64,000 bases of DNA from Vairimorpha necatrix (GCA_036630325.1 CP142732.1:248001-312000); one strand, 5' to 3'. Shown: positions 34,401 through 64,000, counted from the stretch's first letter. Program-made: numbers and translations. Notes: generated from the sequence alone by a model not told the origin.

Positions 34401-36292
34401 TATTGTATTTTTAATGGTAAATGTGGCAGGTTCAACCTGCATTTTTTTAAAACTTTCATTCATAACCATATATTCCTTATTTTTATATTTAAACTTTCCT
34501 TAGCAGCTTGCATAGTGAAACAAATCTTCTCACTAAGACGGTCGTCCAATATTTCGTCGATTGTCTTGTCGCAACCAAGTAGTTTGACTAATTTCTCTCT
34601 GATAATTAGAATTCTCTTACTGAAATCTATTTTACAATCATTATTCTCAAAGAATTCTAGGCCCAAAATAAATTTTACTGGTAGCGCTTTAAGAACGTAA
34701 AAGTCGATTTTATAATCTTCACTTCCAATTTTTACAGTTTCCCTAACAATTTGTGAGAATTCTTCTTCCTCTCCGTTTCCAAATGAGACTCTAATTGGTT
34801 TAGTATCTTTCTTTTTAAATTAAGTTTTTTTACCATATCTTCATGAACGTAGTTTTCATCTGATCTGTTATCTAACATAATGGTCTCAACGGTATTTTTG
34901 ATTCCTGCATTTAGCTGTAAGGCTCTCGAGCCAGTCCGTTTAGTTTCATTTATTATGAACGATTTTCTTTCGTTCTTAGGCTCCTTGGATTCGCCATCTA
35001 ATCTTCGCATATAGCAGTCTCGTGTATTATGAGACTTAAGTCGGCGTATAGAGCACCACTTATTGTTTCTTAAAGTATTGCTAGAGGGGTTCAATTTTTC
35101 TTCCTCGCGATTATTAATAGTACTCGGGGATATGCGTGTTTGCACCAAGGTAGTCTGTAGTACTATCCCCTCTTCTAGCTTCTGAAGGTATTTTATCAAC
35201 TCAGTCAATGAGTAGTTATCTAAATTCTGTTTCAAAATTTCTATAGCAGTAAAATCACCTAGCCCTCTATTGAAAGCTGTAAATAATCGGGCATCAGTTT
35301 CTTTTTTACTCAAACCAAGCATCACTCCATAAACTTCTATGATCTTTTCGATCTCTTCAAAATAGTTGATAATATAAGTAAAATCTACTTGTCTTATCGT
35401 CTCTAATTTCGTCATAAGCAGTCTAACGTCGTTTTTGGAATAAATAATTTTCAGAAGTTCTCCTCGTAGGATCTTATAACTATTACTGGTTAGTTTGTTT
35501 TCCAGCCTTTCATCTTCTATCACAGCATGGTATATGATCCCAATCTGCTCATCATTCCATTCATTGGCCAGTGCCAATGATTCAAATTTTTCGAATTGTT
35601 TTAAATTACAATCTCGTTTCACATTTCAAATTTTTTTTCATCCTTAATTATGACTGCAGTTCCTTATATTTTTTATCAAATAGGATATATTCTTCATTTA
35701 GATCTTCACTTTTCATTTTTTCGTTTGCACTCATCTTCCTATGAGTTTTATCTCTCTCATGAACACTAAATGAGCTCATTGTGGTGTTACACCAGGGAGG
35801 AGGCCTGTTCGTAAGTAGCATTCTTTAATGCTACTCCCTGAAATACTACTTGTAGCATTTTTATTAATTAATTGTTTTTTAAATTCCCCCGAAGCTAGTT
35901 CGGTTCCTCATGTGGGGGGGGGGGTAGGGCTTGAGAAGCCTTCCCATGTTGTCGAAATTGTCTCTGTTTCATTTCTTCTCATCTTGCAAATATTGGGATA
36001 AGATAAAAAAAAAATATTTAAAGCAAAATATTTTCTAAAAAAATCATTTGGAGGGAAAAATAAATAACAAAACAAATAATGTGGTAATTAATACCACAGT
36101 TACATCTCAGATAAGCTGTTTCATTGGATACTCTAAAGGTATTCCAACCAAAAATTGTACATTTCTGCTTATATTTTTTTATTTTGCAGGCTTTCATAAA
36201 AATTTAAAATTTCTTCATTGCTCAGCATTCCCTTCCTTTTTTTAAAAATTTTGACCCCCCCCATTTTTTTTACACTAAAGCTGTTTTTAGCC
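31423..36292 (-). mobile_element. 5' half of a Merlin transposon (31423-31811 + 36099-36292), interrupted by a Gypsy element
   Basis: QIGGENTIVEVDESK and WCFGMVER; terminus ...GCTGTTTTTAGCC; same family as 532-6192. Confidence 0.8.
31812..36098 (-). mobile_element. Full-length Ty3/Gypsy element with frameshifted gag-pol
   Basis: LTRs 31812-32128 and 35780-36098; TSD GTTAC; PPT GGAGGAGGTAGTA; Gag 34732-35622, RT YMDD 33667-34242, integrase pieces 32118-33252. Confidence 0.95.
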
Positions 36293-37988
36293 AACAAAAT
36301 TATAAAACTATAACGAATATTGTAGAGAGTTTTCTCAGTACGAGGAAGGTCCCACTGAGAAATACCACATTGATTTCAATTAGAAAATCTCAGGAGAAAC
36401 AATCTTTATATGAGATACATCAAGATAGATATTGTGAATTTGAATATACGATTAGAGGCACTAATGTAAATATTAAAGAAAAAATTTACAAAATAAATAA
36501 TAAAAAAAAGAAGGTAACTTTCAGCATTTGGAAAAATTCGAAAAAATTGCAAAAAGCAATTGTTGGACAGACCAACAGATGGCCTTAGTATATAAAGTTT
36601 ACTTGGCGATGATACAAAACATAATTTTTAGATGAAATTTATGTAAAATTGAGAAAGGAATTAATTGAAATCATCTACCCGAAATACGAAATATAATTAT
36701 TATGTAAAAGATTGGAAACCATCAAACAGGAAAATTTTAAAACCATTAAATAATATTACAATTAAATTGATCAAAAAATTACCATTTTAAGTAACGTTAA
36801 AAATTATAGCAGTAAAGAGAGGGAAAGAAAAATGAATGAGATCTTAGAAAATAGATTAGGACAATTTACTAGCTTAGAATTGCTGAAACAGAATTTAGAA
36901 GGAGAACCATTAAAAAAATTTTAAAGGACTGTTAAAAAATTAGAAGAAGGAATCGCAATCCAAACCGAGATAAAGAATCTAAAAATTTATGAAACCCCGA
37001 GAGAAGGTAATCACAACAAGAGATATAATGAAGGAAATATTAATTATAACAAGTGGTGTTCGATACATAAATCTCGATCACACAACACTCGAGAATTTTT
37101 TTTAAATCTTAAACAAAATATTAAAAATAACAGAGAGGATAATAGTAAACAAACATATAATAAAACAAGGAATCTAATTATTAACGAAGAAAAATGGAAA
37201 ATCCTAGAAAATATAGAGATTTAAGGAGAGTTTGAGAACAACAAAATTAATTTAATTATTGACACTGGTTCGAATTACAATTACGTCAATACAGAAAATG
37301 TTAATAAATATAAATTAACAGTTGAAGAAACTAAACCCATACTATTAAGATTCGGGGGAGGAAAGAACGAAACTAGCAAAAAGAAAATTACACTAAATGT
37401 TAAAATTGCAAAAGGTCAATTTTAGTAGATTTTTATGTTCTTCAAGAATTATCCGTGCCTTTTATTTTAGGTAATGGTTTTTTAGTGAATAATAGTTGCA
37501 TGATCAATTATAAAAAAAGAATAATTAGTATTAATGAGGATAACATAGTAGCAATGAGTGAAGTGAAAGAACTACAGAAGAGCTATTTAATGATTAACTT
37601 AGTGAAGGGCTGTCTGTCAATTATTTAGGATTAGCCGGAGTTGAATAAAGTTTCAAAGTTTTACATGACCCAAAATTGTAAATTCTCAAGTATAAAAGCG
37701 CCATGTGCAAAATTTTTCATTAAAAATAATATTAAAGTTATACAGTCTAAAGGATACCCTGTACCTGTTAAATATGTACAATAAGGTCGTGAAGAAATAA
37801 ACAGATTACTTAGGGAAGGTATAATCGAGAAAAGTAATTCGTTATTTACTAGTCCGGCATTCTTTATAAAAAAGAAAAATAATGACTTACGACTAGTTGT
37901 AGATCATAAAAAGCTAAATGAAATGTTGGAAGATGACCTTTGGCGTTGCCTAAAATAGATGACTGTTTATTAGAAGATGGGAAAAATC

Positions 37989-62465: not shown

Positions 62466-64000
62466 TGTGGTATTATAAATACCACAAATTATTTATTTTT
62501 ATTTTATCAATTTTCCCTTTTTGGAAAATAGACCATTCGACCGGTCTATTCCAAAAATCAAATATTTATTTCCTTTTTGCCCTGACCCCTACAAAATTAT
62601 GAGACAAGACAAAGATCAGTACCCTTGGAATCCACGACCAAGGAAGGGCCTCAGAGCCAGGGACCAGTATCCCATTACGGATGCCCAACGAGGCTTTAAT
62701 CAATCAAATAAAACATATAATTTAATAGAACTATATTTGTCCAGAGGTAGCTCCTCTGGATTGCGTCATTTTGAATTCAAAGACGAATTAAATAGTAATT
62801 ACGAAGATAGAAATTCCATGTTCGAATACAGAGAATTCGACATGAAGATCACTGGAACAGATGTGATAAGTAAAGAAAAATTAAAAATTATTAAAAAACC
62901 ATCAGAAATTTCAATGGTGGAGCTACAGAAATTTGAGAATCTAGCAGAGGCCAATGGCTGGAATGATGAGCAGATGGGAAGAATATATGGGACCATGTTA
63001 GTTGGTGATCACTTTTTAAACGCCAAGTATAGTAAATCATACTTAAAATTAAGAGCGGCATTACTAGAAATTGCCTATCCTAGAAACATGAGATTTAGAA
63101 TTGCACAGGAGCTCGAAGATGTTAGGCAGTGCAACCACATATATCTGGAAGATTATGTTAAGAATATTTCCCAAAAGTTAGATGCCTACAGTTTCTCAAA
63201 TAATTTAACTAAGCAAGAAGCTGAGAGAAAATTTTCAGAAGTATTTTTTAGAGGACTAGGTAAACAAACTGAGATGGAACTTTGCAAAAATGAGGTTAAT
63301 ACGCGGACCACTTCAGACGTTATTGCTTATCTAAAGACTTTAGAATCAACTATTATTTCTCAAATAGGAAGACGAAACAAGAATGGATATGTACCTAAAG
63401 AAACAAGCAAAATTTGCAAATCAAGAAATCCCTATTGTAGTGTGCACAAGAGCTTTTCGCACAATACAAGAGATTGTAGACTTCGGAACAATCTCAAAGA
63501 TACTAAAGATAAAACGATACATTTTGAAGAAAAAACAAAAAGAAATAATATGGTTATTCAGCTAGGAACAACAAGTAATCAGAAAGAAGTAAAAATAGTA
63601 GGAATATTAGACTCCAATAATTACTTATTGTTAATTGATACAGGTTCACACTTGAATTTTGTGAGTGAACAAGTGGTCAACATGAATGATCATATAGCTG
63701 AACCGTGTCAGCCCTTCACTACTATATTTGGAAATGGAGATGAAAGAATGATTAACACTAAAGCTAGAATACGAATAAGGTTGTCTCCAAATATTATCAT
63801 GGATATTGAATTCTATATTATTAAAAATTGCCCGGTCGATTTACTACTAGGATCTGAATGGCTAAGGAAGAATAAAGCTACAATTGATTTTGCTAACCAA
63901 TCACTTGTTATCAACAATGAAAAAATTCCCTTTATGGACGCGATACTAAACACGGATGAGATGTTAAATGAACGATTTAACAATTTACTTTATGTGTCTC
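62466..64000 (+). mobile_element. Ty3/Gypsy element 5' part; 5' LTR 62466-62768
   Basis: LTR homologous to the 45703/51730 LTRs; starts TGTGGTATTATAAATACCACA and ends GCGTCA. Confidence 0.92.
62599..64000 (+). CDS. Uninterrupted Gag-protease(-Pol) ORF running off the window (absent from the ORF track)
   Basis: Manual translation open for 467 codons: MRQDKDQYPW..., CSVHKSFSHNTRDC knuckle, LIDTGS protease, DLLLG. Confidence 0.9.
   Translation, partial: MRQDKDQYPWNPRPRKGLRARDQYPITDAQRGFNQSNKTYNLIELYLSRGSSSGLRHFEFKDELNSNYEDRNSMFEYREFDMKITGTDVISKEKLKIIKKPSEISMVELQKFENLAEANGWNDEQMGRIYGTMLVGDHFLNAKYSKSYLKLRAALLEIAYPRNMRFRIAQELEDVRQCNHIYLEDYVKNISQKLDAYSFSNNLTKQEAERKFSEVFFRGLGKQTEMELCKNEVNTRTTSDVIAYLKTLESTIISQIGRRNKNGYVPKETSKICKSRNPYCSVHKSFSHNTRDCRLRNNLKDTKDKTIHFEEKTKRNNMVIQLGTTSNQKEVKIVGILDSNNYLLLIDTGSHLNFVSEQVVNMNDHIAEPCQPFTTIFGNGDERMINTKARIRIRLSPNIIMDIEFYIIKNCPVDLLLGSEWLRKNKATIDFANQSLVINNEKIPFMDAILNTDEMLNERFNNLLYVS

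Follow-up and report, generated by a model that had tools for sequence, protein, structure and literature searches.

A self-complementary sequence in place of the tRNA primer-binding site in a Ty3/gypsy clade of Vairimorpha necatrix, and its possible role in priming and dimerisation

Every retroelement with long terminal repeats (LTRs) must find a primer. To our knowledge, only two kinds of primer are established: a host tRNA, used whole or as a half, and the element's own 5' end, as in Tf1. We analyzed a stretch of 64,000 nucleotides from Vairimorpha necatrix (GCA_036630325.1, CP142732.1:248001-312000), called here the window. It contains six LTR retrotransposons of the Ty3/gypsy type, named A, B, C, D, F and G, in which the place where a primer-binding site (PBS) would lie behind the 5' LTR is taken by a short palindrome.

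A palindrome in this place has been described before, in the fungal GalEa elements of the Copia superfamily. Their Conserved Hairpin Site (CHS) is a 9-bp block after the 5' LTR, palindromic together with the last A of the LTR, and its mechanism was left unexplained in 2017 (PMC5445492). A literature search found the term Conserved Hairpin Site only in that paper and in PMC6934838, which cites it, and a search for earlier descriptions of palindromic primer sites gave no further relevant paper. In PMC4202319, on microsporidian transposable elements, a term search gave no occurrence of "PBS" or "primer". For Tf1, cutting of an RNA duplex by RNase H is known only from a title cited in PMC4600332. 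An earlier reading of the window, made from the sequence alone (the sequence-only reading), had proposed a possible new priming mechanism. In view of GalEa, the palindrome in place of the PBS is not wholly without precedent; its Gypsy-clade form is new.

Palindromes in the place of the primer-binding site

[quoted passage not shown] We found all six, each 10-14 nt long and 0-2 nt past the CA end, at the following positions:

A, 35769-35780, minus strand: palindrome AATGAGCTCATT, 6/6 pairs; its first A is the final base of the LTR; predicted homodimer -15.5 kcal/mol
F, 36369-36380, plus strand: palindrome ATTGATTTCAAT, mismatched T-T at the centre; the LTR ends on its first A
G, 41598-41611, plus strand: palindrome AATTGAATTCAATT, 1 nt past the presumed LTR end at 41596
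B, 45471-45482 (read 45482-45471), minus strand: palindrome TTTGAATTCGAA, with one T:G position, 2 nt past the LTR end at 45485
C, 51717-51728 (read 51728-51717), minus strand: palindrome TTTGAATTCAAA, 1 nt past the LTR end at 51730
D, 62770-62781, plus strand: palindrome TTTGAATTCAAA, 1 nt past the LTR end at 62768

A lack of TGG behind the 5' LTR had also been claimed, and over the first 24 nt none of the six elements carries it (0/6). A tRNA-primed element would be recognised by a site at 0-5 nt from U5 that consists of TGG plus at least 8 nt complementary to the 3' end of a tRNA, and the TGG is shown by 0/6. Two other families of the window, H and J, have a TGG-type site at the same position and were used as controls:

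H, 5883-5901, minus strand: primer site beginning TGGCGACAACGACC, directly after the 5' LTR (CA, then TGGCGACAACGACC)
J, 47907-47916, minus strand: primer site TGGCGACAAC, separated from the 5' LTR by 1 nt (CA, C, then TGGCGACAAC)

By the form of their sequence (TGGCGACAAC), these two are ordinary tRNA-type sites; no tRNA genes were found in the 64-kb window itself.

We then set the six sites against the background of the window. Taken over all positions and both strands, the rate of a 12-mer palindrome at offsets -1 to +2 was 0.00235 for a perfect one and 0.033 for one with at least 5/6 pairs. At the six junctions 4/6 palindromes are perfect and 2/6 have 5/6 pairs, and the controls H and J have 3/6 pairs. 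The core motif was not enriched across the window (92 matches with at most 2 mismatches, 128.7 expected), and it occurs there in four exact copies, three at these junctions and one at 16784. The latter copy, TTGAATTCAA, was rejected as a further case: there is no LTR junction at that position, and the copy adjoins DNA-transposon-like sequence. Among the motif matches we did not see any consistent second copy of the palindrome elsewhere in the elements. Behind the 3' LTRs of A, F, B and C and behind a solo A-family LTR the palindrome was absent (0/5), and it is therefore internal and lies outside the LTR. In this clade the slot 3' of U5 is occupied by a self-complementary sequence of 10-14 nt, of the types TTGAATTCAA, ATGAGCTCAT and TTGATTTCAA.

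The anatomy of the elements was defined by self-BLAST and pairwise alignment. The LTRs of the palindromic elements and of the two control families are as follows:

A, 35780-36098, minus strand: 5' LTR; the 3' LTR is 31812-32128, identity 90%, target-site duplication GTAAC
F, 41151-41391, plus strand: 3' LTR, target-site duplication CGTAA
B, 45485-45704, minus strand: LTR upstream of the internal part; the repeat aligns with 43803-44022, and the LTR proper begins with TGT at 45692
C, 51730-51948, minus strand: 3' part of the 5' LTR; its start lies beyond an insertion, at 53076-53163
C, 45702-45973, minus strand: 3' LTR, 98.6% identical to the 5' LTR over 217 nt
D, 62466-62768, plus strand: 5' LTR; the remainder of D continues past the window edge
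H, 2118-2241 and 5902-6025, minus strand: LTRs of a Gypsy family with a TGG-type site
J, 45992-46195 and 47918-48130, minus strand: LTRs of a Gypsy family, nested in C

Pairs of direct LTRs with TG...CA ends were found for A, B, C and F, and the LTR ends are fixed by these pairs in 4/6 palindromic elements. Purine tracts precede the 3' LTR in A (GGAGGAGGTAGTA) and F (GGGAGGGCAGTA), and the target-site duplications of both are 5 bp long. The 5' LTR of F lies in two pieces, 30118-30266 and 36293-36369, separated by nested insertions that include A. For D, the LTR end was deduced from 84% similarity to the C LTR. Element G lies on the plus strand, and its U5 end at 41596 is presumed from alignment to B only, as there is no second copy in the window; F is inserted within G-family sequence.

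The elements belong to the microsporidian Ty3/gypsy retrotransposons. The closest protein relatives are from Vairimorpha necatrix, Dictyocoela muelleri and Nosema granulosis, which puts the host among the microsporidia near these species. Element C is the youngest full element, and its open reading frames (ORFs) match retroviral protease, RVT_1, RT_RNaseH and rve. The Ty3/gypsy order of protease, reverse transcriptase (RT), RNase H and integrase was found with Pfam RVP_2, RVT_1, RT_RNaseH and rve on the ORFs of C and A and with colinear tblastn matches. The sequence-only reading had placed the palindromic elements in one Gypsy clade, and the RT tree agrees with it: A, F and C group together with SH-aLRT support of 99, along with two V. 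necatrix proteins (P0010, P0017). H and a J-type element, I', fall in a separate group with support of 97. This RT-RNase H tree was a quick maximum-likelihood tree of 19 rows and included no Tf1/sushi references; G and a short fragment had been excluded from it because of their length.

Symmetry kept through changes of sequence and reading frame

The palindromes were aligned as 7 pairs in 6 sequences. In this alignment 88.1% of the cells are paired, and 4 pairs are altered on both sides. The covariation score was 0.410, compared with a mean of 0.209 after shuffling, and it was matched by 6/500 shuffles. When the partner was shifted by one column, pairing fell to 50-61%. Three elements have A-T as their outer pair and the other three have T-A, the second outer pair is altered in A, and the central AT changes to GC. 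The last change, from GAATTC to GAGCTC, keeps a pair that is impossible in a small hairpin. As it comes from six related sequences, we regard this covariation as suggestive rather than conclusive.

The same changes bear on the possibility that a host RNA is the primer, such as a tRNA fragment, a tRNA without CCA or some other small RNA with a 3' end that happens to fit the palindrome. There are precedents for it, since Copia elements are described with half-tRNA and internal-tRNA primer sites (PMC6317226, PMC5445492). However, a fixed RNA would freeze the sequence of the site and gives no reason for symmetry, whereas here the outer pair switches between T-A, A-T and G-C and the centre varies while the symmetry stays. 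A reading of the site as a complement of the tRNA T-arm also fails: when the T-loop TTC is aligned, an A comes to stand at the position of G53, which is invariant in tRNA. We therefore think that a host RNA primer is improbable, with a small chance of being correct.

We next considered whether the protein could account for the symmetry. The gag-protease frame of D is open from an ATG inside the LTR (62599-63999, plus strand, open to the window end) and reads the palindrome as FEFK. As this frame runs through the palindrome into gag and protease, the palindrome is translated. The sequence-only reading had dismissed protein constraint on the ground that the encoded residues differ (MSS, LIS, IEF, FEF). 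This list mixes two frames, and in one common frame the translations are MSSF (A), LISI (F), LNSI (G) and LNSK (B, C and D), which gives [L/M]-x-S-x in all six. The conclusion that protein constraint is no explanation nevertheless holds, because in D this DNA is read in a different frame from the one used by its relatives. The intact frame of D is ...LRHFEFKDE..., whereas this stretch yields VILNSKT when it is read in the +1 frame, and the relatives P0112 and P0039 contain HVILNSKT in otherwise colinear N-terminal sequence (LELYFK.G...). The same nucleotides are read in two frames in different lineages and the flanking peptide is still homologous, so that the constraint is on the nucleotides.

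Several further observations concern this coding region. The gag frame begins at an ATG inside the LTR in D (62599-62768) and in C (51730-51899), and R and U5 are thus coding. The U5-encoded peptide (..L-[LI]-E-x-Y-[FL]-x-x-G..) recurs in many homologues from the protein library described below. Between C and D, U5 and the palindrome are 85-95% identical, and the leader behind them is 60-70% identical. A comparison of C and D for coding constraint on the LTR-embedded frame gave a weak signal (pN/pS, nonsynonymous and synonymous differences, 0.198/0.288), which proves little alone. The gag zinc knuckle (D 63427-63475, with counterparts in C and A) has the form C-x2-H-x4-H-x4-C (YCSVHKSFSHNTRDC), in contrast to the usual CCHC spacing with a second Cys.

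To look beyond the window, a gag profile of the clade was compared with 1.84 billion protein cluster representatives (50% identity). There were 1177 proteins with E<=1e-3, and 238 of them had E<=1e-10. Within the window, the N-terminal part of the profile matched only A, F, G, C and D, and not H or the J-type element. Among the best 150 of the 1177 matches, 54 extend by 45 residues or more on the N-terminal side of the gag core. The motif [L/M/V]-[N/S/I/T]-S-x was found 20-70 residues upstream of the core in 37/54 of these, once per protein, while 0.155 matches would be expected per interval searched; L-I-S, as in F, occurs in 6/37.

In the motif-bearing proteins, residues 1 and 4 covary as the outer base pair of a palindrome predicts. 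When residue 1 is L (TTG), residue 4 can be coded with an initial A (K, I, N, T, M, S) in 24/24 proteins. When it is M (ATG), residue 4 can be coded with an initial T (F, Y, W, L) in 9/11, and when it is V (GTG), with an initial C in 2/2. Fisher's test gave p = 2.8e-4 for unambiguous residues and p = 3.6e-7 with Leu counted as T-starting. When any middle residue was allowed, N, S, I or T occupied that position in 37/48 cases, compared with 230/688 elsewhere (p = 3e-9), and lysine, the commonest background residue, is absent from it. The A-starting codons of just these four residues (AAT, AGC, ATA, ACG) can give a centre that is self-complementary. The encodings would be TTGAATTCA- for L-N-S, ATGAGCTCA- for M-S-S, TTGATATCA- or TTGATTTCA- for L-I-S and GTGAATTCA- for V-N-S, as predicted from the protein sequences.

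Other searches returned little. The gag profile had no match in the genome, metagenome or viral contig collections, the RT query had none in the genome contig collection, and the pattern of U5 hairpin plus palindrome had none in the metagenome contig collection. A word-index protein search with gag residues 41-340 found nothing at near length, and the P0063 query returned itself only. A protein-atlas look-up gave weak, arthropod-leaning rows at 0.90.

The earlier statement that the sequence varies while the symmetry is kept is thus borne out both by compensatory changes in the six DNA sites and by residue covariation in the library proteins. Taken together, these results show that the symmetry of the slot is under selection at the level of nucleotides.

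Predicted folding, pairing partners and a possible route of priming

Single-sequence folds predict that the palindrome is presented at the tip of a stem in 6/6 elements. One strand of the stem is formed by the last bases of U5 and the other by the leader just behind the palindrome. The predicted stems are:

A, 35752-35798, minus strand: AACAC / GTGTT
F, 36351-36397, plus strand: CTGAGA / TCTCAG
G, 41580-41633, plus strand: CCCCGGATAT / GTATCT...GGGG
B, 45450-45500, minus strand: TACAG / CTGTA, the weakest of the six
C, 51700-51744, minus strand: TTACGTC (51737-51731) / GGCGTGA (51716-51710); 100-nt fold z = -3.14
D, 62758-62790, plus strand: CGTC (62764-62767) pairs with GACG (62782-62785)

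The stem sequences differ by family. Duplexes between U5 and leader had a mean of -9.43 kcal/mol for cognate and -6.02 kcal/mol for non-cognate combinations, and the cognate sum was reached by 2/720 permutations. The TGG-type element H has a comparable 6-bp stem of U5 and leader around its PBS. As this stem brackets the PBS, the palindrome sits in the PBS slot of a shared architecture.

Family-specific pairing of this kind is relevant to a DNA-level explanation. The palindrome might be a site for a dimeric protein, that is integrase or a host factor, or its symmetry might come from template-switch correction of a quasi-palindrome, with no function in RNA. Symmetry alone cannot separate RNA pairing from a dimeric protein site, and a short hairpin-like inverted repeat also starts every LTR here. 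On the other hand, the half-sites vary by family (ATGAG, TTGAA, TTGAT), which would be incompatible with binding by a shared protein, and the family-specific complementarity of U5 and leader speaks for an RNA fold. The site has persisted in 37 lineages that share less than 50% identity, and this argues for selection. We consider this explanation very improbable.

Homodimers of the palindromes were predicted at -7.3 to -15.5 kcal/mol. In silico, a stem-loop of the 5' leader carries the palindrome exposed at its tip, in the manner of a retroviral dimer initiation site (DIS). It could be argued that the palindrome is only a signal for dimerisation or packaging, like the retroviral DIS or the PAL sequences of Ty1, and that something else is the primer and anneals at or over the same place. 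Self-complementarity and the predicted position at a stem tip would suit this, and palindromic sequences were proposed to mediate Ty1 dimers (PMC4974528). Yet the known DIS adjoin a separate PBS (PMC5445492), and none is present here. Moreover, the primer must pair right after CA and the 0-2 nt, which is the palindrome itself, and there is no other conserved block in that place. A purely dimerising role therefore seems unlikely to us.

We also looked for other strands with which the site could pair. The sequence-only reading had seen no complement of the Tf1 type, and this was confirmed: with RNAduplex, 0/6 LTRs paired with the 16 nt after the LTR better than shuffled LTRs did (fractions 0.17-0.82). 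Downstream, C, D and G had their best partner at +64..+73, with shuffle fractions of 0.020, 0.033 and 0.073, and no significant downstream partner was found in A, F and B (0.13, 0.69 and 0.53). The block at +64..+73 encodes a gag peptide (..EF/EL..x-G-T) conserved in many homologues, and it departs from the exact complement in every element. Because of this conserved peptide, we did not read the block as an element similar to CHSeq2.

Priming in cis would be an alternative. The palindrome would either form a hairpin or, in the way of CHSeq1 and CHSeq2 of GalEa, find a partner some 64-73 nt downstream, and a cut behind the paired 3' arm would allow the RNA to prime on itself. The partners in C, D and G would be consistent with such a hairpin, the RNAalifold consensus is a small hairpin of the palindrome, and CHS provides a precedent (PMC5445492). 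Nevertheless, A, F and B are without a downstream partner, and where a partner exists its conservation is explained by the gag peptide. A hairpin of 4 bp is a poor primer, and it could not form the pair that is kept in the change of GAATTC to GAGCTC. In our opinion cis priming is quite unlikely.

The reading that we prefer is that the palindrome serves both as the PBS and as its own primer, by means of a dimer of genomic RNAs. The LTR boundary marks the start of minus-strand synthesis, and thus the primer must pair with the palindrome. The partner changes along with the site, and it therefore belongs to the element; the sole complement found was the palindrome itself. Annealing of RNAs through the palindrome, and a cut at its 3' edge that supplies the primer, are what we infer from this, and the predicted stem of U5 and leader fits such a scheme. 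We put the probability of this reading somewhat short of even.

According to this model, the stem of U5 and leader would present the palindrome, and two packaged genomic RNAs would pair palindrome to palindrome in an RNA duplex of 10-14 bp, about as long as the 11-bp primer duplex of Tf1. RNase H of the element, or another nuclease, would then cut one of the strands at the palindrome's 3' edge, the point at which duplex and leader strand meet. The new 3'-OH would be extended over U5 and R of the partner and give minus-strand strong-stop DNA. The spacer of 0-2 nt after CA would correspond to the bases that are removed when the LTR end is trimmed for integration. In this scheme one and the same element would serve for dimer linkage and as primer site, and a host tRNA would not be needed.

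There are several points against such a model. A cut RNA would lose its primer site, so that the uncut partner would have to template the rest, and the primer would need trimming to about the palindrome for plus-strand transfer. The DNA evidence is limited to six copies, which belong to five families of a single window, and several of the copies are decayed; F carries a central mismatch and B a T:G position, and covariation tests based on shuffling are inflated by the kinship of the sequences. The library evidence was derived from protein sequences and not from their DNA, 2/11 M-type proteins break the outer-pair rule, and 17/54 extended homologues are without the motif. Two sequencing runs, X1 and X2, each hold about 45% of the words of the window, both as contigs, and no RNA run was listed. 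Among the 40 variants listed out of 1113 from these runs on 32200-43700, none lies in a palindrome, which is uninformative on variation there.

More broadly, it is conceivable, though on balance we doubt it, that a large Ty3/gypsy clade has fused dimer linkage and PBS in one palindrome, with the 5' fragment of the cut RNA priming on its partner. With similar reserve, we suggest that such a clade might take in microsporidia together with 37 or more lineages of public protein data that share less than 50% identity, possibly including arthropods. If this is true, replication would be independent of the host tRNA and of the mRNA 5' end, and it would be a third way of starting the minus strand in LTR elements. 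Independence from host tRNA could matter for persistence in the very reduced genomes of microsporidia and for movement between hosts.

Other features of the window and comparison with known systems

The window is AT-rich (GC 22-39%) and forms a dense nest of LTR retrotransposons and DNA transposons. Element B is short and non-autonomous, with an internal part of 1.46 kb and no pol, and it has a tandem layout of LTR, internal part and LTR (43803-45704; 53164-53266). A B-family copy is the insertion site of element C, which itself has J nested within its 3' LTR, and B-family sequence continues in the flanks of C. The solo A-family LTR (6260-6511) has a perfect 5-bp target duplication, CTATT. Transposase ORFs of the Merlin type (IS1595/ISXO2-like DDE) lie inside Gypsy elements at 38570-39073, 14317-15309 and 17515-18444, and there is one MULE transposase ORF at 26392-27210. 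The 1.3-kb repeats 11298-12597 and 20072-21379 (97.6% identical) were rejected as LTRs, since they have terminal inverted repeats (GGCGCTACTTAAAAATTCGC...) and are thus DNA transposons.

Every LTR family of the window, including the TGG-type H and J, opens with a hairpin-like inverted repeat directly after the purine tract (36080-36098, 41151-41166, 62466-62486, 53143-53163 and 45675-45692; also 5996-6025 and 48101-48130). In several families the arms repeat the terminal inverted repeat of the LTR itself, for example TGTGGTA-TTAAT-TACCACA. This hairpin might be a second integrase site or a landmark for RNase H or the polypurine tract.

In run X2, the summed contig depth over 41392-42183 was 80,894 and 40,527, compared with 5-50 in neighbouring bins, which is about ten thousand-fold; in X1 the excess was about threefold. 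This unit covers the G-family U5, the palindrome and about 580 nt of leader, and the depth falls sharply at about 42184. Such a very abundant short unit would be either a non-autonomous element or a transcript, the kind of the X2 run being a guess.

Of the described systems, the CHS of GalEa shares most with the sites reported here. It too is found without a tRNA-type PBS and with no complement in U5 or the LTR, in fungal or fungus-related hosts, and in A and F (2/6) the palindrome likewise includes the final A of the LTR, while in G, B, C and D it starts 1-2 nt later. GalEa belongs to Copia, whereas the present elements are Ty3/gypsy by domain order, and the CHS sequence (CTGATCAGT / CTAATTAGT) differs from the palindromes of the window. 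In GalEa the first block has its pairing partner in a second one, 12-41 bp downstream; in the window the best downstream partners are those at +64..+73 in C, D and G only. Unlike in CHS, the pairing that is supported here joins the strands on either side of the palindrome, the U5 end and the leader, and the site lies in coding sequence. A palindromic primer slot may explain the orphan CHS of fungal Copia, and CHS may be a convergent case.

The elements Tf1, Tf2 and Tj1 of the Tf1/sushi group resemble the proposed route in being independent of tRNA, in the use of their own RNA, in a primer duplex of about 11 bp and in the need for a cut in an RNA duplex. However, the partner of the Tf1 PBS is the initial stretch of the mRNA, which lies inside the LTR (PMC4600332), and here the site pairs with itself and 0/6 LTRs offer a complement. 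A chromodomain, which marks Tf1/sushi elements, was not found in the integrase tails of A and C: there was no Pfam match on the last ORF of A (32121-32591) and only rve on that of C. In both elements the integrase reading frame ends at the purine tract.

Retroviral DIS and Ty1 PAL are similar in having a self-complementary sequence in the 5' leader, on a stem, suited to contact between two RNAs. They sit beside a separate tRNA PBS, whereas here the palindrome fills the PBS slot and there is no other PBS. In the dimer model for Ty3 and Ty1 (PMC4974528), priming and dimerisation are joined by a 12-nt palindrome that belongs to the 5' end of the host tRNAiMet; here the palindrome is the element's own.

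In summary, a self-pairing primer slot that is kept through compensatory changes and a change of frame points to a further solution to priming, which would link it with genome dimerisation. Compared with the systems above, what is new here is a palindromic primer slot of a Gypsy clade that is embedded in coding sequence, presented on a predicted stem and broadly conserved.

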